A stretch of 64,000 nucleotides of DNA, taken from Escherichia phage Ec_Makalu_003. The notes under the pieces are model-generated. The model made no database searches, was not told the DNA's origin, and saw only the letters and a list, made by a program, of their open reading frames with translations. Both the position numbers and the translations under genes were made by a program. Shown in pieces: positions 9,550-26,114 of this stretch. How positions within the stretch are numbered: the stretch's first letter is position 1; every line of letters starts with the position of its first letter. The stretch is taken from the sequence record MN882349.1, one strand, 5' to 3'.

Positions 9550-11279
9550 ATGACGCATTAACATCATTTCGCGGGATGCGCAAGGAAGCGGAAGAAAACC
9601 CGATTGATAAACTTAACAAATTAGATAAACTTGATTCTATTGATAATTTGCAAGCCGCGACCGAATTGGTAGCGGAGACAGTAGAACAAAAATCTAATGA
9701 AGTTGTTGGTGCGGTAGAGGATAACACCGCAGCCAACGAATTGACGGCAGAAAATACACAATCTACCGCTGGCAATACCCAAAAAACTTATGAAGAATTG
9801 CAAAAACTCAATAATTTCTCTTCTCAGATGAATGAGAAATTACGTGGTTTTGGTGTTATGATGGAACGTAGATTTGGTGTTGTCAGTAAAATGGCTAGTG
9901 GTATTGGTGCGATTGAAGAAGCACTGAAAAAACCGGAACAACCGCAAACAATGCCATCACCTCAGCCAGTTTTGCCTACTGTACCTGAACAGCCTAATAA
10001 TGACAACTATCAAGGTCTTCCAAAGAAAAAACCAGATGTTGATGACCGAAAGAAAAAGAACGCCACAGATAAGCGTAATGCGGATTCTATGGAAAATCTT
10101 CTTAAAGTTGTTCGTGGAGGATTTAAAGAAACCATAGGTATCTCTAATAAGGTCTTAGGGATGTTATTTAAGATCACTTTGACCGCTATGGCAGAAGCCG
10201 CAAAATGGGGTGCTATTTTGATGGGTATTGTTTTTGTCATTGATACCCTGATGGTTCATTTCAGATATTGGAGCGATTTATTCGAGACAAAATTCAGTGA
10301 ATTTATGGATAAGGCCGGAGATTGGGCTGGTCCTATTAGCGATATTTTAACTACTGTTCGTCAGGTTAGAGATTATTGGTCTAAAGGAGAATATAAAGAA
10401 TTAATTAAATCGCTGGTTATGGGTATTGGTGATGCATTCTATAAAACCTTTATCCAACTTGATCGAATTATCACTACTGGTATTGCTAAAATTCTTCGCA
10501 TGATCCCTGGTATGGGTGATTATGCCGATAATTTAGAATACGGTGCTTTAAAGTCTGCTGTTGCTAAAGGCTATAAGCCAAATGACCGAGAACTCGAATT
10601 AATGGATAAGATCGAGTCTGAACACGAAGAAGACAAATATGGAGAGCGCACAGGATGGACAGGAAAAGCCCGTGATATTGGCGAGGCCATAGGCGAATCT
10701 ATTAAAGATAAATTTAATGAAGGTCTTGTTAGTCTGGGCTGGAGAGATCAAAAGGATGTTGACGCAGAGAAACGACAAGAAGAATTAAAACGCGGGGAAT
10801 ACAAGTCTGTTTCTGCTGAACAACGATCTGCTAGTCGTAAACTTAAAATTAAAAGCGAGGGAGCGATCAATAATATTAATGAAGTTATGGAGAATTTGAG
10901 CGGTGACTATGACAAAGAAAGAATGGAAGAGTTGAAAAAGGATATTGATGTTTACCGTGAGCAAGTTCAAGATCCTACATTAGTTGAAAGTGATCGTTCT
11001 CAGTTAGAGCGTCTTATTGAAAAATTTGATGAGATGTATGCTGATAAAACTAAGGGTGTGGTTCCAACTAATCCTGTTCCTGCAACTGAAACGGAAACAG
11101 CAAAACAAGCGGAACGTACTGAACAAATGCAGAAACAAGCTGCAATCCAGCAACAAACGACAAATCAGACCTCAAACGTAAATAATACACAAATTGTAAC
11201 AAACAATAGAACTATTAAACAGGGTGCACCAACAACTAGAATTGATGCCCCCGGTACAATTAATATGGGGAACTTTTAA
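9546..11279 (+). CDS. 29: baseplate hub / tail length determinator gp29
   Basis: 577 aa; size and position as T4 gp29; hydrophobic central segment. Confidence 0.75.
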   Translation: MNDALTSFRGMRKEAEENPIDKLNKLDKLDSIDNLQAATELVAETVEQKSNEVVGAVEDNTAANELTAENTQSTAGNTQKTYEELQKLNNFSSQMNEKLRGFGVMMERRFGVVSKMASGIGAIEEALKKPEQPQTMPSPQPVLPTVPEQPNNDNYQGLPKKKPDVDDRKKKNATDKRNADSMENLLKVVRGGFKETIGISNKVLGMLFKITLTAMAEAAKWGAILMGIVFVIDTLMVHFRYWSDLFETKFSEFMDKAGDWAGPISDILTTVRQVRDYWSKGEYKELIKSLVMGIGDAFYKTFIQLDRIITTGIAKILRMIPGMGDYADNLEYGALKSAVAKGYKPNDRELELMDKIESEHEEDKYGERTGWTGKARDIGEAIGESIKDKFNEGLVSLGWRDQKDVDAEKRQEELKRGEYKSVSAEQRSASRKLKIKSEGAINNINEVMENLSGDYDKERMEELKKDIDVYREQVQDPTLVESDRSQLERLIEKFDEMYADKTKGVVPTNPVPATETETAKQAERTEQMQKQAAIQQQTTNQTSNVNNTQIVTNNRTIKQGAPTTRIDAPGTINMGNF

Positions 11280-17090: not shown

Positions 17091-17270
17091 TTAGAACATT
17101 TTTGAAATTAATTCTGCTTTGATTTCGCAGAGAACATCTAAAGATTTCTCGTCACCCGCTTTTGCTGCTTCTGCTTGCATTTTTGAAATGGCTTCAATGT
17201 CAGTGCAATTATAAGCCGCTTGAACTTTAGCGATTGCGATGATTGCCGATTCGATGGTTAAGTGTTTCAT
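17091..17270 (-). CDS. hypothetical protein, 59 aa
   Basis: ATG at 17270 preceded by AGGAGAATCAAAC; downstream of the PeSL at 17303. Confidence 0.4.
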   Translation of the reverse strand: MKHLTIESAIIAIAKVQAAYNCTDIEAISKMQAEAAKAGDEKSLDVLCEIKAELISKMF

Positions 17271-17302
17271 GTTTGATTCTCCTTTCGTTTCGGTATGTGT
17301 GC

Positions 17303-17331
17303 AGTATAGGGGATCGCCGATCCCCTGTCAA
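17303..17331 (-). promoter_or_regulatory. early promoter with stem-loop (PeSL)
   Basis: minus strand: TTGACA, 17-bp perfect palindrome GGGGATCGGCGATCCCC as the spacer, TATACT. Confidence 0.65.
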
Positions 17332-17858: not shown

Positions 17859-18191
17859 TTATAGTCTCCTGAATGGATCATCACGTAAATCAATATCTTT
17901 TAAGAACTCATCCCATGAATGGCGGATAATGTTCTTAATTCTCCAGATAAGCGCAGGGATTGAACGCTCTCCCATCTGGAAGTAAGGATCATATGATCCA
18001 TATGCCCAATATGCTACTACAATTCCACAATCGGCGCAATAATATTCTATTTCACTTGCTGGCGACCAAAGTCCATCAATATGATCACGGATCTTGCTTT
18101 CGATGTTATGGCTATGGCAATCAGGGCAACGGATGCAATGACCTTGTTTATCGTAATTTGACGTTAGCGAATACTTAAACAATCTCATCAT
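17859..18191 (-). CDS. zinc-ribbon protein, 110 aa
   Basis: CIRCPDCHSH...YYCADCG; coupled to both neighbours. Confidence 0.5.
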   Translation of the reverse strand: MMRLFKYSLTSNYDKQGHCIRCPDCHSHNIESKIRDHIDGLWSPASEIEYYCADCGIVVAYWAYGSYDPYFQMGERSIPALIWRIKNIIRHSWDEFLKDIDLRDDPFRRL

Positions 18192-18904
18192 AGATCCTTA
18201 TTGGCTTCAAATACTGCCTTTGCGAATCCTCGCGGGGTAAGTGACCTGATAGTCTTTGTTCTGGTTCCTTTCCCGCCTAGCTTAGAATGCTGTTTACTGT
18301 ACCCTTTATTAATCTGCAACGGTTTCTTTTCTGGCATTATAAAGCCTTGTCCGGTCCATAAGCAAGTCTTTTTCGGGTACATATCACGGGCGGCAATATA
18401 CTCAGGAAACGTAGGATGCTTATCATCTTCCGGCAAATAACCGCCATATTCCCACGGATGGAACATGTAATCAGGCTTACGCCACATGCTAGAGATAACG
18501 CTTACAGGATTCTCTATCATGTAGGGAACTCCTAGCCATTCACCCAAATAAGCGGTTATTTTAGCTGCCCTTACATCATGAACTTGAATTAATGGTCCTT
18601 GTTCTCGTTTCTTTCGTTCAAAGTGCGCAGCGCCACTAACAGCTAAATTGGTGCATGGTGGGAATGCAAAGATAATATCCGGTTTCCCCCATTCAAGGTC
18701 CATTGCTCTTTCCAGCCAATTTAAATCAATCCATGTGTTTACATATGTAATGTTTGGATGTTCAAATCTGGTATTATATTTTTTGTATGTACCGTGGTCG
18801 CCATCGTCAGCATTAAAGCAGATCACCTTATGACCTGCTTTAGCCCATTCTAACCCCATTATCCCCGATCCGTCAAAGTTGCAGAATATTAATTTTTGTT
18901 TCAT
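18188..18904 (-). CDS. minimal C5-methyltransferase-fold protein
   Basis: motif I-like FCNFDGSGIMG, motif IV-like FAFPPCTNLAVSG, motif VI-like YMIENP; only 238 aa with no obvious target-recognition domain. Confidence 0.55.
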   Translation of the reverse strand: MKQKLIFCNFDGSGIMGLEWAKAGHKVICFNADDGDHGTYKKYNTRFEHPNITYVNTWIDLNWLERAMDLEWGKPDIIFAFPPCTNLAVSGAAHFERKKREQGPLIQVHDVRAAKITAYLGEWLGVPYMIENPVSVISSMWRKPDYMFHPWEYGGYLPEDDKHPTFPEYIAARDMYPKKTCLWTGQGFIMPEKKPLQINKGYSKQHSKLGGKGTRTKTIRSLTPRGFAKAVFEANKDL

Positions 18905-19146
18905 ATACGCCCCTTTAACCCAACACAGATTTTAGAAGGTTCTTTGCCGTGCCACATTAAGTAAATTCCGTTAATGCGTCCTTGTTTTGTATATGATTCT
19001 TTTCTGATCTTCTTATAGTGTCGTGCTTCCTCAGCCGATTGTTTAGAATGTCGATCATAAAGGAAGAGGAACAAAGGCCAACCATTAGCGGCCTTAATGC
19101 AGTTATTCAAAAATTCCTTATTTCGTTTAATTAATTTTCTTTTCAC
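18901..19146 (-). CDS. hypothetical basic protein, 81 aa
   Basis: ATGA-type overlap with both neighbours. Confidence 0.45.
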   Translation of the reverse strand: MKRKLIKRNKEFLNNCIKAANGWPLFLFLYDRHSKQSAEEARHYKKIRKESYTKQGRINGIYLMWHGKEPSKICVGLKGRI

Positions 19147-19394
19147 GCTGCCCCCATTGGTTTGATAGTAACAGAATCTAAAAGACCTTTGTTAGCCAGT
19201 TCGCGGCAAGTTTTCAGATCCGCAACTTCCCAGCCAGCCGCAATAAGGTTATCAATGAGGCTGTTAGCAACTTCTTCGCTCATGAAAGAGCACTGTTTGC
19301 CGATGGTGTAGCGTACACGCTGTAATTTCAGTTTACGGAAGCCTTTAACGTTCAGGTCTTTAGCGATTTTCTTTGCGGTTTCGATGTTAGCCAT
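19143..19394 (-). CDS. hypothetical protein, 83 aa
   Basis: first gene after the PeSL at 19435. Confidence 0.5.
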   Translation of the reverse strand: MANIETAKKIAKDLNVKGFRKLKLQRVRYTIGKQCSFMSEEVANSLIDNLIAAGWEVADLKTCRELANKGLLDSVTIKPMGAA

Positions 19395-19434
19395 TGTTTG
19401 ATTCTCCTAAGTGGTATCTCGTCTTGATGGTTGT

Positions 19435-19463
19435 ATTGTAGGGGAGTTATCCTCCCCTGTCAA
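19435..19463 (-). promoter_or_regulatory. early promoter with stem-loop (PeSL)
   Basis: TTGACA, spacer GGGGAGGATAACTCCCC, TACAAT. Confidence 0.6.
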
Positions 19464-19477
19464 CACTTTTTATAAAA

Positions 19478-19645
19478 TTATTTGTTAATTTCTGGTGCGT
19501 TGCTAGGATAGTAACCTTCTTTAACTCCGAGGTATTTTGCAACCATCCCTACAATCTTCTGTGCTACTACAATGTCAAATTTCAGATAATCTTCGCCGTG
19601 GGTTTCAATGATATATGCTTCACATGCTGCTTTAGTCTCGAACAT
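19478..19645 (-). CDS. small conserved protein, 55 aa (copy 1; paralogue at 22760..22927)
   Basis: MFETKAACEAYII...GVKEGYYPSNAPEINK; second copy differs by about ten amino acids, with additional synonymous differences. Confidence 0.55.
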   Translation of the reverse strand: MFETKAACEAYIIETHGEDYLKFDIVVAQKIVGMVAKYLGVKEGYYPSNAPEINK

Positions 19646-19678
19646 TTTGATTCTCCTATTTCGTTTCGGTATGTGTGT

Positions 19679-19707
19679 ATTATAGGGGATCTCCCGATCC
19701 CCGTCAA
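19679..19707 (-). promoter_or_regulatory. early promoter with stem-loop (PeSL)
   Basis: TTGACG, spacer GGGATCGGGAGATCCCC, TATAAT. Confidence 0.6.
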
Positions 19708-19721
19708 CAACTTTTTTAAAA

Positions 19722-20003
19722 TTATTCGTGATTAGTTTCGATATTGTGCATTTTGCACCAGTTCAGCCAATCGCCAAGATCTTGATAGTTGATGCTTTTA
19801 TCTGCTGCCATCGTTTTTGTCTTGATACCCATATGTGCGTTATGAGTAAGCATTTTTACAGTGAACTCAATTTTATCGCCTTTAGCTTTAACATCAACCA
19901 GTTTGGTCCACTGGCTACCAGCACCGCGAATGTTCATACCAACGATGTTTCCGATGTATGCTTCTTTGTTGTTCAGGATTTCGGTTGCTTTGATGAATTT
20001 CAT
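19722..20003 (-). CDS. hypothetical protein, 93 aa
   Basis: ORF after a PeSL-family promoter. Confidence 0.5.
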   Translation of the reverse strand: MKFIKATEILNNKEAYIGNIVGMNIRGAGSQWTKLVDVKAKGDKIEFTVKMLTHNAHMGIKTKTMAADKSINYQDLGDWLNWCKMHNIETNHE

Positions 20004-20036
20004 TTTTGATTCTCCAGTTCGTTTCGGTATGGGTGT

Positions 20037-20065
20037 ATTATGCTATGTTCTTACTTTGGTGTCAA
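20037..20065 (-). promoter_or_regulatory. early promoter, PeSL family with degenerate stem
   Basis: TTGACA, 17 nt, CATAAT, conserved leader. Confidence 0.5.
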
Positions 20066-20073
20066 CAACTTTT

Positions 20074-20343
20074 TTAGATATTTTCAGAAATAAATTTTAA
20101 AACTTGACGTAAATGTTTCTCATCTTTGATAGTCGCCGGAAGTTCTTCTTTTACTTCCTGTGCAAGATAGATATTTCCGTTCCAAGTGAAAGACCCGTCT
20201 TCGTTTACGCGATAGCTGAACATCCATTCGCAATCATTTTCGATTTCATATACACACAGAAGGGTGTAATCTTCAAAGCTATTGATTTCAAGGTCGAAGC
20301 CGTGGCGTTTTGCAAAGTTGGTAGTGGTTTTAGTCAGTGCCAT
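20074..20343 (-). CDS. hypothetical protein, 89 aa
   Basis: ORF after a PeSL-family promoter. Confidence 0.5.
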   Translation of the reverse strand: MALTKTTTNFAKRHGFDLEINSFEDYTLLCVYEIENDCEWMFSYRVNEDGSFTWNGNIYLAQEVKEELPATIKDEKHLRQVLKFISENI

Positions 20344-20383
20344 TGTTTGATTCTCCTAAGTGGTATCTCGTTTCGATGGGTGT

Positions 20384-20412
20384 ATTATGCTATAGGCGTG
20401 ATCAGGTGTCAA
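20384..20412 (-). promoter_or_regulatory. early promoter, PeSL family
   Basis: TTGACA, 17 nt containing TGATCA, CATAAT. Confidence 0.5.
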
Positions 20413-20469
20413 TGCCTTTTTTAAAATTTTATGCAATAAAAAAGCCGACACTAAGGTCGGCTAATAAAA

Positions 20470-20778
20470 TCATTTAGACAAATAATCATTCAGTGCAATC
20501 CGGTCGGCATGTTCCGGCGTTACATCAATCGCAATCACTTTAACGCGTGCTTTCTTGCGACCTGGGTTTTCTCGTAACCAGTGCTCATGACCGTGAACAT
20601 TTTTATACTGCGATGCTTCTTCGAAGGTACGGATCGGACCAGGGTAATCAGCGTAAAGGATCTCTAGGTCATCGGTGATGTAAAAATATACGTTGTAATT
20701 ACTGTTCTCTAGCTTAAGCAGAGACTTTCGGAACATTGGGAGATTTTCGCGGGTAAATTCAAAAGTAATATCTTTCAT
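20470..20778 (-). CDS. HxH-HW family protein A, 102 aa
   Basis: ATG at 20778 with GAGGA; motifs YFYITDD, HGHEHWL, VIAIDV. Confidence 0.5.
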   Translation of the reverse strand: MKDITFEFTRENLPMFRKSLLKLENSNYNVYFYITDDLEILYADYPGPIRTFEEASQYKNVHGHEHWLRENPGRKKARVKVIAIDVTPEHADRIALNDYLSK

Positions 20779-20827
20779 AGTATTATCCTCAATAGTTGGA
20801 TGAAAAGGGGGCTTAACGCCCCATATA

Positions 20828-21115
20828 TTAAAACAGTCCTTCCTGTACACCGTAGTAGAGTTCGTCGCTGATAATTTCATTAATGCGACGGTGTGCATAT
20901 TCCTGATTTGCGAAGTTGTCAGCAAGTTCTACTTTAGTTTCACCGTCATGAGTCCATTTAGTGATAACTTTACCATCTGCAAATTTGAAGTTGAACTCTT
21001 TAGCTACTGCATCGCGTACCAGACGTGCGAACTTGTTGTTACGGATTGCATTATCGGTTTCGTGTGCAGCGTGAGCAAATTTGTTAACTTTCAGAGTGAT
21101 AGTGATGTATGCCAT
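20828..21115 (-). CDS. hypothetical protein, 95 aa
   Basis: ORF followed by hairpin ggggcttaacgcccc and a T-run. Confidence 0.5.
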   Translation of the reverse strand: MAYITITLKVNKFAHAAHETDNAIRNNKFARLVRDAVAKEFNFKFADGKVITKWTHDGETKVELADNFANQEYAHRRINEIISDELYYGVQEGLF

Positions 21116-21161
21116 AATTTGATTCTCCTAGTTAGAAAGTGTATCTCGTTTCGATGGGTGT

Positions 21162-21190
21162 ATTATGCTATACACCCGATCTTATGTCAA
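21162..21190 (-). promoter_or_regulatory. early promoter with stem-loop (PeSL)
   Basis: TTGACA, then GGGTGTAT/ATACACCC inverted repeat flanking CATAAT. Confidence 0.55.
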
Positions 21191-21197
21191 CACTTTT

Positions 21198-21476
21198 TTA
21201 TAAAATAATTTTTTGATATTTTTCTATGATGTTTGTGTAATCCACATCAACCGCTATCACCGTTGCTTCGAATCCACCGTTTAGCCAATGGCTATGGTCA
21301 TGATCGTGAAAGAAACCAAGACCAGTACGAAGACCTTCTTTATATTCGGCGCGTACATTTAGATCATCATCGATAAACAGATAAAACCATGAATTTTTAC
21401 TAGGATTGATGATACAACCTTTCAGATTAGGGAGAATATCACGACTAAGAATAAACTTATCACCTACTTTGAACAT
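21198..21476 (-). CDS. HxH-HW family protein B, 92 aa
   Basis: ATG at 21476 with GTGAGGA; motifs FYLFIDDD, HDHDHSHWL, VIAVDV. Confidence 0.5.
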   Translation of the reverse strand: MFKVGDKFILSRDILPNLKGCIINPSKNSWFYLFIDDDLNVRAEYKEGLRTGLGFFHDHDHSHWLNGGFEATVIAVDVDYTNIIEKYQKIIL

Positions 21477-21480
21477 AATA

Positions 21481-21801
21481 TTAGTCCTCACTTATAAGGT
21501 CAAACCAATTGTTTTTCGCATAATGCTTAATGCGTGCTTGATCTGCTTCCGCTGGTGATAGATTCCATGCAACCACTACAACTTCTGACGCGTCGTCATC
21601 CGTTTCTGATACCCAATGATTGTGATTCATACAGTTATTTGCGATCGAGTGAGCAAATGATTTCATCACTGGAGACGTATAATCATAGTAACGGATTTTC
21701 AGATTTTCATCAACATACAAGTAGATCGTATAAGGTTTATATTCAGTAACCAGTAACAGACAGTTACGCAATTCTGGGAAAATCTTTTTAGTTAATTTCA
21801 T
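21481..21801 (-). CDS. HxH-HW family protein C, 106 aa
   Basis: ATG at 21801 with GAGGA; motifs IYLYVDEN, NHNHWV, VVVVAWN. Confidence 0.45.
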   Translation of the reverse strand: MKLTKKIFPELRNCLLLVTEYKPYTIYLYVDENLKIRYYDYTSPVMKSFAHSIANNCMNHNHWVSETDDDASEVVVVAWNLSPAEADQARIKHYAKNNWFDLISED

Positions 21802-21802
21802 T

Positions 21803-22021
21803 TTATAATCCTCGGTCGCGGCTATAGTACACGGTACGCCATACAATTTCATGTTTCGTGTCGCTCCAGCACACGATCTCATTTACTCTTAAATCTTTGT
21901 TATCAACAAAAGATGAACATTGTGACGCTTCTTTCATCATTTTATCTGCTGTTTTCTCATCAAATACAGCACAGATTTCTTTATACACTCGATAATCTTT
22001 GAATTGACTCTGGATACCCAT
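21803..22021 (-). CDS. small protein, about 72 aa (paralogue of 21981..22238)
   Basis: QFKDYRVYKEICAVFDEKTADKMMKEASQCSSF vs KFKDYKAYQQILRVYDAEFAEKMMEDASKCPSF. Confidence 0.45.
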   Translation of the reverse strand: MGIQSQFKDYRVYKEICAVFDEKTADKMMKEASQCSSFVDNKDLRVNEIVCWSDTKHEIVWRTVYYSRDRGL

Positions 22022-22238
22022 AATTAACACCATTCCAACCAATTGTTTTTGAGAAAACGTTTATCCACTGTTGAGTGTAGCATGTTTCTTTCCATGATAC
22101 AATACGAGTAGAATAATGGTTTTTGTTTCCAGAAAAGGACGGGCATTTTGATGCATCTTCCATCATCTTTTCGGCGAACTCCGCGTCATATACCCGCAGG
22201 ATCTGTTGATATGCTTTATAATCTTTAAATTTGCTCAT
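21981..22238 (-). CDS. small protein, 85 aa (paralogue of 21803..22021)
   Basis: tandem paralogue overlapping the next gene in another frame. Confidence 0.45.
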   Translation of the reverse strand: MSKFKDYKAYQQILRVYDAEFAEKMMEDASKCPSFSGNKNHYSTRIVSWKETCYTQQWINVFSKTIGWNGVNYGYPESIQRLSSV

Positions 22239-22503
22239 AATTGTTAACTACCTTATCAGCTTCTTTTATTGTTTTTACATCAACTGCGATAATCCGTAAA
22301 GGTTCGTCGAAGGTCCACCAGTGGTCATGAATATCAGCTTGTGATTTATCACCAAAGGAATCACGAATATCATTTTTACATTTATAGCTAATATGGCCTT
22401 CATAGTCAACATAAAGGTAATTATCGAAAATCGGAGTTTTTAAGATCATACCGAAAAATCTTTCTTTGTGTGTCTTATCAAGTGTTGCAGTAATTCGCAT
22501 CAT
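22225..22503 (-). CDS. HxH-HW family protein D, 92 aa
   Basis: motifs YLYVDYEG, IHDHWW, IIAVDV. Confidence 0.5.
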   Translation of the reverse strand: MMRITATLDKTHKERFFGMILKTPIFDNYLYVDYEGHISYKCKNDIRDSFGDKSQADIHDHWWTFDEPLRIIAVDVKTIKEADKVVNNYEQI

Positions 22504-22515
22504 AATATATTCCTC

Positions 22516-22695
22516 TTAGAAAGGGATGGTCATTTCTTGAGCTTGTACATTCTCGTTAGGATTAAACTTCATCCAACCGATATTGTCTACCAGCATATGT
22601 ACATTTTTATCATATCCTACGTGAGTAGTCAACACTAAATGTGCTTTACCTTCAACGATGATTTCCATGTACTTCTGAACTTCGATAGCTTTCAT
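22516..22695 (-). CDS. hypothetical protein, 59 aa
   Basis: ATG at 22695 after the conserved leader GGAGAATCAAA. Confidence 0.35.
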   Translation of the reverse strand: MKAIEVQKYMEIIVEGKAHLVLTTHVGYDKNVHMLVDNIGWMKFNPNENVQAQEMTIPF

Positions 22696-22721
22696 TTTGA
22701 TTCTCCGTTTGTTGTCTTGAT

Positions 22722-22756
22722 GGGAGTATCTTACTACTCCCTTTAATCATTGTCAA
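22722..22756 (-). promoter_or_regulatory. early promoter with stem-loop (PeSL)
   Basis: TTGACA followed by palindrome GGGAGTAGTAAGATACTCCC. Confidence 0.55.
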
Positions 22757-22759
22757 CTA

Positions 22760-22927
22760 TTATTTGTTAATTTCTGGTGCGTTGCTCGGATAGTAACCTT
22801 CTTTAACACCCAGATATTTTGCAACCATTCCGGTGATCTTCTGTGCTACTACGATATCGAATTTCAGGTAGTCTTCACCGTGGTTTGCTACAATGTATGC
22901 TTCGCATTCTGCTTTAGTCTGGAACAT
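22760..22927 (-). CDS. small conserved protein, 55 aa (copy 2; paralogue of 19478..19645)
   Basis: MFQTKAECEAYIV...GVKEGYYPSNAPEINK. Confidence 0.55.
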   Translation of the reverse strand: MFQTKAECEAYIVANHGEDYLKFDIVVAQKITGMVAKYLGVKEGYYPSNAPEINK

Positions 22928-22961
22928 TTTTGATTCTCCTATATCTCGTTGGTATGTGTGC

Positions 22962-22990
22962 ATTATAGGGGATCACCGATCCCCTGTCAA
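22962..22990 (-). promoter_or_regulatory. early promoter with stem-loop (PeSL)
   Basis: TTGACA, spacer GGGGATCGGTGATCCCC, TATAAT. Confidence 0.65.
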
Positions 22991-22995
22991 CAACT

Positions 22996-23289
22996 TTATA
23001 ATGCTTTATACGCGTATTTCATAAATTTGTCTGCCACTTCATTGGCATGTTCAGATTCTACGCCTGATTCGAGAACAATAGCTAGGTCGGTTTCGTCATT
23101 CCCGCCGTACCAATGATTTGATGTTCGATTTTTTTCAATTGGAAATTGGTCACTTTTATCTGTGCGACAAAATACATCTAAATGCTCGTCGATGTAAAAG
23201 ATCCAATCTTCATAAAGAATAACGGTATTAGCAAGATTTTTATTGCCTTCAACGAAAGGTTCCGCGACAAATAGCTTAGTTTGTTCCAT
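22996..23289 (-). CDS. HxH-HW family-like protein F, 97 aa
   Basis: ATG at 23289 with GAGGA; FYIDEHLDV...SNHWYGG; weakest family member. Confidence 0.4.
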   Translation of the reverse strand: MEQTKLFVAEPFVEGNKNLANTVILYEDWIFYIDEHLDVFCRTDKSDQFPIEKNRTSNHWYGGNDETDLAIVLESGVESEHANEVADKFMKYAYKAL

Positions 23290-23305
23290 AGTAATTTCCT
23301 CAAAA

Positions 23306-23497
23306 TTATACAGTTTCGTAAACTTCCCAATGTTCAGCGCCAACACGCTTAACGAAAAGGTTTTCTTTGATGTTATTCATAAACGTCTGGATGGATTTAA
23401 TGCGGTTTGAAGGTTTCCATTCTTCGTTGGCATTGCGTCGATACATCATAACATTACCAGTTCGCTTATATTCAGCAACCATTTTAAGACCACACAT
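23306..23497 (-). CDS. hypothetical protein, 63 aa
   Basis: ORF between family members. Confidence 0.4.
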   Translation of the reverse strand: MCGLKMVAEYKRTGNVMMYRRNANEEWKPSNRIKSIQTFMNNIKENLFVKRVGAEHWEVYETV

Positions 23498-23554
23498 AAT
23501 ATTATCCTCAATTTGTGGGAGAGTATTACCCCTCCCAATGATTGTTATGTTATA

Positions 23555-23875
23555 TCACACAAAATGGCGTGTCAATGCTTCTTTTGCGGTTCCGCTAAGA
23601 CTTTCAATCTCGCCTGGCATAACATCAACCGCCAGAACTTCTACAACATCTTCGGACCCTAACCAGTGAGTATGGCCTTTGTAGAACTTGATAACCAGAC
23701 CACCTTCCTCGTCCCATTTAACGCTATCGCTAGCCCACCACACATCACCGTCGATAAAGTTGATGTAAAGCACACTACGCCACATTGAATTAATTACTTT
23801 CAATACTGCGCCTTTCATCTCTTCCACGGTATGGTCTTCCATTTTGAAGACCTCACCTACCTGAACTTTTGCCAT
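23555..23875 (-). CDS. HxH-HW family protein E, 106 aa
   Basis: motifs LYINFIDGD, KGHTHWL, VLAVDV. Confidence 0.5.
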   Translation of the reverse strand: MAKVQVGEVFKMEDHTVEEMKGAVLKVINSMWRSVLYINFIDGDVWWASDSVKWDEEGGLVIKFYKGHTHWLGSEDVVEVLAVDVMPGEIESLSGTAKEALTRHFV

Positions 23876-23892
23876 TTAGTCACCTCTCTTTA

Positions 23893-24072
23893 TTACATAA
23901 CAATCACGCCAGCCGTTGAAAGTTGATGTTTCAACTGAGCATTTTCTGCTACTGTCAAATCAATGATTTCTTGTGACGCTGCAATCATATAACCATTGGT
24001 GATATTGTTTTGCATCAGTTCAATGGTTTCTTCGTTGTAGCGGATTTTAGCGATGATTTCGTTGAAGTTCAT
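23893..24072 (-). CDS. hypothetical protein, 59 aa
   Basis: ATG at 24072 downstream of the PeSL at 24107. Confidence 0.4.
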   Translation of the reverse strand: MNFNEIIAKIRYNEETIELMQNNITNGYMIAASQEIIDLTVAENAQLKHQLSTAGVIVM

Positions 24073-24106
24073 AATTGATTCTCCTAGTTCGTTTCGGTAT
24101 GTGTGC

Positions 24107-24135
24107 AGTATAGGGGATCGCCGATCCCCTGTCAA
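24107..24135 (-). promoter_or_regulatory. early promoter with stem-loop (PeSL)
   Basis: identical to the 17303-17331 element: TTGACA, GGGGATCGGCGATCCCC, TATACT. Confidence 0.65.
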
Positions 24136-24148
24136 CAACTTTTTTGAA

Positions 24149-24625
24149 TTATTTTTCTTGATGCTCGCGCTCGTACTTTTCGAAATAAAATTCTACTGGC
24201 TGATCGTGGATTGAAAGCAAGCCAAAGCGTTTAGCCGCACGTAATCCCATGTTACGTTGAATGTACTTCTGGAAGTTCTCGCGTATACACTTACGCCAGT
24301 ATTCTAAGCCCATACAGCTTTTGTAAAGATTGCATTGCACACAAGCCGGATTCATGTTGTCAAGTATATCGTGCTCCGGTTTATGCATTCCTACAACCTT
24401 ATACTTCCACGATCCATCATCATTACGGGCAATTCGTCCATTTTCATCATAGACTACTTTTGAGCGTCGCAATACTGGTTTGATGTGGTCTGCGTGCCAG
24501 CGATCCCCTAGTTCCTCGCCACAATAGGCACAACGCCCACCGTATTTCATTTTCAGGATCTGGCGTTGCTCTTTCTTTGACAATTTTTTAGGTTTAGGGG
24601 CTTTCGCCCCTTCATTATCACACAT
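24149..24625 (-). CDS. HNH endonuclease
   Basis: CAYCGEELGDRWHADHIKPV and NMNPACVQCN; start overlaps the DNA ligase stop by 8 nt. Confidence 0.7.
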   Translation of the reverse strand: MCDNEGAKAPKPKKLSKKEQRQILKMKYGGRCAYCGEELGDRWHADHIKPVLRRSKVVYDENGRIARNDDGSWKYKVVGMHKPEHDILDNMNPACVQCNLYKSCMGLEYWRKCIRENFQKYIQRNMGLRAAKRFGLLSIHDQPVEFYFEKYEREHQEK

Positions 24626-26114
24626 CGAATACCTCTTTTACTGTATTTGCAGTGGTCTTGTCGTAGCGAATACGTTTGATGATTGGGAGAAATAAAGAGA
24701 ACTCCGGTTCATCTTCTTTACGTGATTTGCTGCGGATATATCCGTTGCATGTCATCTCAATGACTTTTCCGATCAGGTTATGACGGTCAGCCCATAACAT
24801 TTCTCGGTCGAGTTCATTTCGACGATCGAACGGAATTACACGTTCAATACCATCATCATCTTTTTCGGTTGTGGTGTCGGTCAATCCCGATCCGGTGTTA
24901 GTCGTCATTCGTCCGCACGCACTACGGACAGTAAAACCGCCTACCTTGTTAGGATCTTTACTATGCGGATATACATCAACAATTTCCGCGTCGAAGTCAA
25001 TCACTTCTTTAAATTTAACCTGATCTTTACTGCGACGATCTTCAAATACACCATGTAAATTTTTAAGGATAATACCTTCTAATCCCATGTTGACATAACG
25101 ATGATATACTTCGCGAGCTTCATCGATATTGTTAACTACAGTGTTTTCGATTATCTGAACACGAGGATCGTTAAGTTCTTCAACAATCTGTTTTAGTTCT
25201 TCGAATCGATCTTTATATTGCTTCGTTGCTTTCTCGTTTCCGTAATACACATCACGGTCGATAACATCCCAGACAGTGTAAACAATACATTGGGCTTCTT
25301 CTTTTGGAATAGTTCCTTTCAGTGATTTGTTGAGGATACCATTTCCGGTCTGACGGTCTGCAACAACGGATTCTTTCACTGCTTCCGCTACTGGCGTTAA
25401 TGGCATTTCCTCTTCTTCAAATATCCATGATAGAGTACCATCATAAACGCTCTCAACGAAGTTCTGCGCTGGTGTTTGAGAAAGGGTAGGCATATATACC
25501 AACTCACCATCTAAAACAATTCCACGGCCTCGTAGACGCTCTAAAACAGCAAACAAATCATCCAGCCCCTGATAGGTATTACCTGAACGGGTATAGATTG
25601 CTAATGTTTCTCCGTCAATATCAGCCATACCACGAGCGCCATCGCTTTTAAGTTGTGCATACGCCGGATATTTGATATTGGCAATAGTCTTATCAGAACA
25701 TGACGATGCAAGGTGGCACGGCTGCTGAGGAATCAGCTTCTTCCATACCTTGTTTGCGGTGGTAGCGGAACAACCGCATTCCAGATCACGATTCAGGACC
25801 ATCATTGCAACTTTAGCATCATCTTCTGACAAGCAAGTCAGAGTATCGGTAACTAGCTGTAATGCAGCATTACCAGTTACTTGACGCGTGGCAAGTTTAT
25901 TTTTAAAGACCTGTAATGCACCGGATAAAGACAATACAGACGAATAGCGAGACGGTTTATCGTATTTCTTTACGCCAAACGTAACCTGCTTGCAATATGC
26001 CAGATAAAAGCATTCTTTCAGCGTTTCATTGCTTGCAGATTCTTTCAGGATCTTTTCTTTCAGCGATGTTTTGTCAGTGGCTGCAAGCTGATTAATGATA
26101 TTAAGAATTGACAT
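24618..26114 (-). CDS. 30: ATP-dependent DNA ligase gp30
   Basis: motifs QLKSDGAR (KxDG adenylation), VLDGELVY, RDLECG, as recalled from T4 ligase; ATG at 26114 (track start 26120 is a GTG). Confidence 0.9.
   Translation of the reverse strand: MSILNIINQLAATDKTSLKEKILKESASNETLKECFYLAYCKQVTFGVKKYDKPSRYSSVLSLSGALQVFKNKLATRQVTGNAALQLVTDTLTCLSEDDAKVAMMVLNRDLECGCSATTANKVWKKLIPQQPCHLASSCSDKTIANIKYPAYAQLKSDGARGMADIDGETLAIYTRSGNTYQGLDDLFAVLERLRGRGIVLDGELVYMPTLSQTPAQNFVESVYDGTLSWIFEEEEMPLTPVAEAVKESVVADRQTGNGILNKSLKGTIPKEEAQCIVYTVWDVIDRDVYYGNEKATKQYKDRFEELKQIVEELNDPRVQIIENTVVNNIDEAREVYHRYVNMGLEGIILKNLHGVFEDRRSKDQVKFKEVIDFDAEIVDVYPHSKDPNKVGGFTVRSACGRMTTNTGSGLTDTTTEKDDDGIERVIPFDRRNELDREMLWADRHNLIGKVIEMTCNGYIRSKSRKEDEPEFSLFLPIIKRIRYDKTTANTVKEVFDV

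Follow-up and report, generated by a model that had tools for sequence, protein, structure and literature searches.

A gene in two copies in the hyperplastic region

The DNA considered here is a stretch of 64,000 nucleotides (nt) of Escherichia phage Ec_Makalu_003 (record MN882349.1), referred to below as the window, which belongs to a Krischvirus, i.e., an RB49/phi1-like, T4-type coliphage. Its minus strand carries two copies of an early ORFan that encodes a protein of 55 amino acids (aa): copy A, at 19478..19645, and copy B, at 22760..22927. An earlier note on this DNA had reported two near-identical 55-aa open reading frames (ORFs) at these positions, and both are indeed present. In fact, a tblastn search of the window with copy A finds these two places only (100% and 89.1% identity, with E-values of 2e-34 and 3e-31, respectively), so the match between the copies is far beyond chance. 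Each copy is 168 nt long (55 codons and a stop codon), and the two align without gaps; the 67-aa ORF that was listed for copy B (22760..22963) is an over-extension, its start falling inside the B promoter. Both have orthologues in phi1 (ORF191 and ORF205, respectively) and in RB49, where copy A is RB49p191 (ORF191) and copy B is RB49p205 (ORF205), both of 168 nt and at matching positions.

The 7 kb around the pair is 95-99% identical to Krischvirus genomes (RB49, phi1, JSE and GEC-3S relatives), Ec_Makalu_001 being the best match (99.4%). Both copies lie among ORFans, in a hyperplastic region that is bounded by alt and by the gene of the gp30 DNA ligase and that varies in gene content from genome to genome. 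They are 3,282 bp apart, and the block between them (19646..22759, minus strand; 3.1 kb) holds ten ORFan genes, corresponding to RB49 ORFs 204-197, 194 and 193, all of which fall in PHROGs without known function; the window is without RB49 ORF192, ORF195 and ORF196, as is phi1. It was in exactly this region that Arbiol, Comeau, Kutateladze, Adamia and Krisch (2010; PMC2839356) defined the promoter-early stem-loops (PeSLs).

The earlier note had placed each copy immediately downstream of its own PeSL, and this description holds for both, as a sigma-70 promoter with a stem-loop in its 17-nt spacer, followed by a Shine-Dalgarno (SD) sequence, stands directly upstream of either gene. The PeSL upstream of copy A (PeSL193/191; 19646..19721, minus strand) comprises an AT-rich tract, the promoter TTGACG-N17-TATAAT at 19707..19679 (11 of the 12 consensus positions; -35 box at 19707..19702, -10 box at 19684..19679), the stem-loop GGGGATC-GGGA-GATCCCC and the SD AGGAGAA. 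The PeSL upstream of copy B (PeSL206/205; 22928..23003, minus strand) has the promoter TTGACA-N17-TATAAT at 22990..22962, matching the consensus at 12 of 12 positions (-35 box at 22990..22985, -10 box at 22967..22962), the stem-loop GGGGATC-GGT-GATCCCC and the same SD, and is identical over 76 nt to PeSL206/205 of RB49. In both, the spacer is filled by a 7-8 bp GGGGATC/GATCCCC stem, after which AGGAGAA and the ATG follow. The AT-rich tract before the -35 box, with the stop codon of the preceding gene, reads TAATTTTAAAAAAGTTG / CATTATAAAGTTG, and the 3′ end, with SD and start codon, reads AGGAGAATCAAAATG. The window as a whole contains 10 exact TTGAC-N15-19-TATAAT sites, compared with 0.44 expected. 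According to PMC2839356, a lacZ fusion of RB49 PeSL206/205 yields ~13,000 Miller units, i.e., it is a strong promoter; terminator assays in that paper covered PeSL211/210 only.

Two further PeSLs form the downstream edges of the cassettes: PeSL191/190 (19395..19477, minus strand), which holds the promoter of ORF190, behind copy A, and PeSL205/204 (22696..22759, minus strand) behind copy B. These are also predicted to fold, with minimum free energies of -15 to -20 kcal/mol and z-scores of -1.7 to -4.5. The homology between A and B goes a single base beyond the stop codon (TAAT) and gives way there to the following PeSL, which is unrelated between the two loci; it reaches no further upstream than the PeSL. 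The repeated unit is an upstream PeSL plus its gene, a direct repeat of ~240 bp with 83-86% identity between the cassettes. The sequence traits by which PeSL cassettes are recognised are found at the pair: sigma-70 boxes, a G/C-rich stem-loop, an AT-rich tract, SD and start codon, and a hyperplastic location; in addition, the empty sites of the phages Brandy, MIZ4 and FL04 hold chimeric PeSLs left by recombination between PeSLs.

The same GGGGATCGGCGATCCCC stem-loop is also found in the PeSLs at 24070..24135 and 17268..17331 (both on the minus strand), which drive the unrelated 59-aa ORF209 and ORF186, and PeSL-B is closer to these two than to PeSL-A. The upstream PeSL was considered as a sign that promoter and gene had been duplicated together, and it was rejected as such, since the same type drives unrelated genes; PeSL similarity is generic and, therefore, no evidence that both were copied at once. 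Stems of the GGGGATCGGCGATCCCC type have two GATC (Dam) sites each. The PeSLs at 24070..24135 and 17268..17331 represent further dispersed repeats of ~65 nt, which could recombine with PeSL-A and PeSL-B.

Divergence, selection and distribution

The two copies differ at 24 of their 168 nt (14%; 86% nt identity), and 17 of these 24 differences are at third codon positions. Only six amino acids are replaced, namely at residues 3 (E in A, Q in B), 7 (A/E), 13 (I/V), 14 (E/A), 15 (T/N) and 32 (V/T), so that the figure of about ten given in the earlier note was too high; the additional synonymous changes it mentioned are present, 15 codons having synonymous differences only. By the Nei-Gojobori method (S=33.7, N=131.3, Sd=17, Nd=7), the synonymous divergence dS is 0.84 and the nonsynonymous divergence dN is 0.055, giving a dN/dS of 0.066 (Fisher P=6e-9) where a ratio near 1 had been set beforehand as the outcome that would speak against selection. 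When 24 random substitutions were simulated (20,000 trials), a mean of 17 amino acid changes was obtained, six or fewer were never reached, and the reading frame stayed open in only one trial in three. Additionally, the ~30 copies read from 19 other genomes and contigs are all intact. Both copies have been held under strong purifying selection since the pair arose, and the selection on the protein that the earlier note had deduced from the pattern of changes is borne out by the ratio, the simulations and the intact copies of the relatives.

The products, gp191 (A) and gp205 (B), are acidic proteins of 6.2 kDa with isoelectric points of 5.2 and 5.6, and both match all 55 positions of the PHROG 8009 profile (E-values of 6.8e-38 and 1.2e-38), but this family has no annotated function. 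AlphaFold2, run with a five-sequence alignment, gives a mean predicted local distance difference test score (pLDDT) of 77.7, with helices at residues 5-16 and 18-39 and an unstructured tail; the prediction is thus a hairpin of two helices, followed by the conserved GYYPSN tail. F2, T4, K5, C8, E9, Y11, I12, G17, A28, G44, S48 and N49 are invariant in the family alignment, and Y45 is invariant in all members except the Sashavirus one; thus, because G44, S48 and N49 are among the invariant residues, the tail is conserved in spite of its predicted disorder. Five of the six A/B replacements fall in residues 3-15 (clustering P ~0.03), and on a helical wheel residues 3, 7 and 14 span no more than 40 degrees. 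According to the model, then, most of what separates the two versions is on a single face of helix 1.

In a screen of sequence records in which a copy was counted at 80% identity or more, 63 records matched the 7-kb region and 58 held a copy. Two copies at the same positions were found in 51 of these 58 Krischvirus records, and the single-copy isolates retain A only or B only. Orthology was read in 12 phage genomes and six metagenomic or viral contigs, of which nine and four, respectively, have both copies. The copies of this set form two clean orthologous groups, the A-type adjoining ORF190 and the B-type adjoining ORF204. Flanking DNA differs by no more than 5% among these genomes, as opposed to the 14% that separates A from B, which places the origin of the pair before the sampled genus.

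Outside Krischvirus, homologues were found only in a few lytic siphoviruses and in one unclassified contig, so that the family is confined to a small number of lytic phages of enterobacteria. The homologues of Swiduovirus swi2, SeSz-2, D10 and Bas81 have 66-72% identity, those of Sashavirus and its relatives 38-44%, and that of the unclassified contig, L015 (Logan SRR5584643), has 84% identity to A and 78% to B. When 1.8 billion representative proteins were searched exhaustively with a profile, five clusters (at 50% identity) were obtained; a word-indexed homologue search gave four clusters, and a search of IMG/VR two loci; the 12 loci found in metagenomes all belong to the three phage groups already seen. 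No homologue was found among the bacterial genomes of GTDB and, thus, there is no sign of prophage copies. In the siphoviruses, the homologue directly follows a sigma-70-like promoter and opens a small operon next to the terminase genes, in which a conserved gene of 68-70 aa comes after it. This second gene (4146..4358 in L006, 4180..4386 in L007) is 75% conserved between swi2 and Sasha, whereas the 55-aa homologues of these phages are only 45% identical, and it has a weak match in the window at 10082..10171 (minus strand; 40% over 30 aa), 9 kb from copy A. Two database proteins that resemble the family are artefacts: P0004 has a promoter-derived N-terminal extension and a frameshifted C-terminus, and in P0006 residues 1-22 of copy B are fused to an unrelated sequence that resembles a histidine kinase.

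Two explanations that would deprive the pair of its meaning can be weighed against these data. That the repeat is an artefact of assembly or annotation (a collapsed or mis-joined repeat) is so improbable as to be negligible, as the copies differ at 24 sites and have unrelated flanks on both sides, and as dozens of phages that were sequenced independently, among them Sanger-era RB49, phi1 and JSE, have them at these same positions; the recurrence of the two-copy layout in 51 of 58 independent Krischvirus records excludes it, and with it an objection that the earlier note had foreseen. A second explanation would be that one copy is redundant and drifting, the low dN/dS reflecting constraint from before or shortly after the duplication. 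Isolates with A only or B only do exist (Cognac, FL04, Brandy, MIZ4/5, JK32, UPWr_E1 and two metagenomic contigs), as would be expected from redundancy, but both copies are intact in every genome that was read, the variation inside each group is almost wholly synonymous or derived from conversion, and consensus promoters and SD sequences are kept by both. Moreover, both copies are retained in 51 of the 58 records and the losses strike A and B alike, with no preferred copy. Consequently, we consider drift of one copy very unlikely.

Recombination between the cassettes

Every copy was typed at the 24 sites where A and B differ. Copy B of Brandy and copy B of PTE-Eco09 have six consecutive A-type sites (codons 17-25). 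Conversely, copy A of PTE-Eco09 is B-type at codons 3-8, the copy of Cognac is B-type at codons 38-47, and copy A of phiS and the ECD7-like copy A have B-type sites at codons 39-47. Judging by their contiguity, these runs of the other type are gene-conversion tracts and not independent mutations. Only one of the 24 A/B differences falls in the last 48 nt (binomial P=0.003), which is probably due to such tracts.

The repeats have also been involved in the loss of genes. In Cognac and FL04, ORF206 is followed by a single chimeric cassette and then by ORF190, recombination between the two cassettes having deleted the 3.1-kb block as a unit. Sequence of the B type gives way to that of the A type between the SD and codon 3 in Cognac and, in FL04, inside the -35/stem. 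In a tree built from the alt region, the two-copy phage phi1 is the sister of Cognac, and FL04 is nested elsewhere. As they are not sisters, have different junctions and are nested among two-copy genomes, these phages represent two independent derived deletions. On the same grounds, the possibility that the single-copy genomes preserve an ancestral state was rejected.

Copy A has been removed by three different natural deletions, two of which have a chimeric PeSL at the junction. In Brandy (L005, 9670..9770), cassette A has been lost exactly, and ORF193 is joined to ORF190 by a chimeric PeSL; the crossover, with PeSL191/190 as the partner, took place between the -10 box and the SD. In MIZ4 (L002, 9675..9770), another chimeric PeSL joins ORF193 to ORF185, and in contig L010 (7560..7860) A was lost by a non-PeSL deletion that fused ORF199 to ORF190 in frame-less fashion. 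Thus, recombination junctions at PeSLs, which the earlier note had named as a trace worth looking for, exist as chimeric PeSLs in Brandy, MIZ4 and FL04. The gene upstream of B also varies: it is ORF206 in the window, ORF210 in PTE-Eco09 and an HNH gene in phiS. Conversion, block deletion and excision of a single cassette, as read from these natural genomes, show the A and B repeats to be live recombination substrates, and the single-copy isolates are compatible with either copy alone being enough for a viable phage.

Homologous recombination in T4 uses short repeats and generates deletions and duplications. The events described here are similar to such ectopic recombination in that direct repeats 3.28 kb apart lead to loss of the DNA between them and leave a single hybrid repeat, and in that the conversion tracts are patchy; they differ from it in that the repeat is a whole functional cassette under selection and in that the products are natural isolates rather than laboratory mutants. 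The PeSL cassettes that have been described in RB49 and phi1 (PMC2839356; Comeau et al. 2014, PMC4122927) share the genus, the hyperplastic region and the elements with those of the window, and the crossovers seen here (-10/SD, SD/ATG and -35/stem) sit in the zones that were mapped for mini-circles in PMC2839356. Both papers deal with insertions, deletions, replacements and mini-circles, but their searched text contains no ~240-bp repeat made of a coding sequence and its PeSL, no gene conversion between two cassettes such as is seen here, and no mention of ORF191 and ORF205 as copies of one gene. A literature search on gene duplication in Krischvirus returned nothing relevant.

The allelic classes of the neighbouring ORFans (22996..23289, 21803..22238 and 22225..22503 of the window, compared with L001-L019) assort independently from gene to gene. 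The identities that mark the classes are 77-79% vs 97% for ORF206, ~70% vs 99% for ORF201 and ~69% vs 95% for ORF203, and ~83% was found for ORF202. The idea that the block between the copies moves as one haplotype was rejected, as the gene-by-gene table contains no block-wide haplotype and, hence, no sign of a block that moves as a unit.

Additional features were observed in and around this block. Two slightly overlapping genes at 21981..22238 and 21803..22033 (minus strand; orthologues of RB49 ORF202 and ORF201) are paralogues with 43% aa identity, both in PHROG 8471, and on this comparison they are a second, older tandem duplication between the copies. A loose family of 90-110-aa ORFans with the shared pattern '...Y.D...HW...V.A.DV' comprises six ORFs of the minus strand (20470..20778, 21198..21476, 21481..21801, 22225..22503, 22996..23289 and 23555..23875); BLASTP links three pairs of them at 26-29% identity, and two members are in PHROG 9345. 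Judged by such similarities, the region is rich in old paralogues. A canonical intrinsic terminator (20443..20462, minus strand), with a 7-bp G+C stem and a T run, directly follows ORF197; it is here that ORFs 195, 196 and 196.1 are present in addition in RB49. A Dcm-like C-5 cytosine DNA methyltransferase gene (18188..18904, minus strand) lies 0.6 kb downstream of copy A and was lost together with A in MIZ4. An Rfam scan of 18000..25000 gave nothing.

Origin of the second copy and possible roles of the pair

We regard it as probable that the locus as a whole is an old pair of PeSL cassettes, selected and still recombining. Before the divergence of the Krischvirus genomes sampled, one cassette would have been inserted at a second PeSL, most likely by PeSL x PeSL recombination or by the mini-circle pathway of Arbiol et al. 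(2010), whose 'H' mini-circle holds ORFs 191-194 and, thus, copy A (PMC2839356). Both copies would then have been kept by selection, with the repeats recombining ever since. The cassette-mediated duplication that was claimed in the earlier note stands in part: the anatomy of the boundaries fits it, since the homology stops at the next PeSL on one side and at the upstream PeSL on the other, but the duplication is unproven, as the event predates the sampled genus, the PeSL type is shared and the divergence between A and B is within the allelic range. An all-against-all BLASTP comparison found no further paralogous pairs around A or B that would flank a larger segmental duplication. On the narrower question of whether B stems from a duplication within the genome, we consider the chances evenly balanced.

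Of the two, copy A probably occupies the older locus, and copy B would be derived. In contig L015 (4723..5165), the A-like gene, which is the nearest outgroup of copy A, and a homologue of Krischvirus ORF194 (41% identity, E-value of 3e-25) are translationally coupled (GTGATG); in Krischvirus, ORF194 is located two genes upstream of copy A. Additionally, the outgroups have the residue of A at positions 3, 14, 15 and 32, whereas they have that of B at position 7 and, in three of the five, at position 13, so that B would be derived at four of the six differing residues. It is from this coupling and these residues that we infer the polarity. No PeSL lies between the two genes of L015, which suggests that ORF193 and ORF192 were inserted between them in Krischvirus.

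The copies might also be xenologues, B being a diverged allele captured from another phage lineage: a PeSL mini-circle, or a larger circle using a Campbell-type single crossover, would have integrated at a second PeSL without replacing the resident allele. Allelic classes elsewhere in the region (ORF202, 206, 201 and 203) differ by 17-31%, more than A differs from B, and by this measure capture is no less plausible than a duplication inside one genome. Furthermore, the dS of 0.84 exceeds the divergence of the flanks more than tenfold, a gap that does not sit easily with a duplication inside the crown lineage, and the family does move between unrelated phages, for instance, Swiduovirus and Sashavirus. 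By contrast, A and B are mutual nearest relatives at the nt level (24 differences, compared with 40 and 44 to L015), and neither a B-type allele at the A locus nor the reverse was found among the phages examined; the force of the nearest-relative argument is, in turn, weakened by ongoing gene conversion. In any case, we judge both the capture and the circle-integration route by which it would have occurred to be credible but somewhat improbable.

Several points weigh against the reading of the locus as an old, selected and recombining pair of cassettes. The polarity depends on one outgroup contig and six residues, and is limited accordingly. The original route of duplication cannot be read from the sequence, because non-functional flanking homology would have decayed at a dS of 0.84, and because the PeSLs are mosaics of a kind that unrelated genes have as well. 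The deletions and conversions were read from deposited assemblies, not from sequencing reads. As for the protein, the structural model was built from only five sequences and has moderate confidence; Pfam and a sequence-profile search of PDB gave no match at E≤10, PADLOC gave no match, and Foldseek found nothing in PDB and only the protein's own orthologue in BFVD.

Two proposals on function may be added. The protein could be a small accessory factor, made early from a very strong, host-type promoter, that acts by binding a protein of the host or of the phage; we put this forward as a tentative and rather doubtful suggestion. Host RNA polymerase would transcribe both copies immediately after infection; the promoter activity on which this expectation is based was measured for the B promoter of RB49 only (PMC2839356). 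A more speculative, quite improbable view is that the copies have become sub-functionalised and that the pair of cassettes acts as portable homology arms, forming a composite 'super-cassette'. E3Q, A7E and E14A, on one face of helix 1, together with residue 32, would then tune two variants to a host or defence target, and the ten-gene block would be excised as a 3.3-kb circle and re-inserted into a co-infecting phage that holds at least one copy. If true, such a super-cassette would represent a level above that of single PeSL cassettes.

The understanding of these genomes is unchanged by the finding, which is an ordinary case of known gene shuffling: PeSL biology, in the very phage group where PeSLs were defined, explains the pair well. 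What is new is the explicit paralogy of ORF191 and ORF205, the test of selection, and the comparative evidence for mutual conversion and for loss of the intervening genes. The pair can be seen as a natural example of a duplicated PeSL cassette, at once a selected copy and a hotspot where cassettes convert each other and the genes in between are lost, and it widens the PeSL shuffling model from regulatory repeats of ~60 bp to a repeat that includes promoter and gene. Finally, it draws attention to a candidate for functional studies, a very small early protein family, presumably highly expressed, that lytic phages of unrelated groups, both coliphages and Salmonella phages, have in common.

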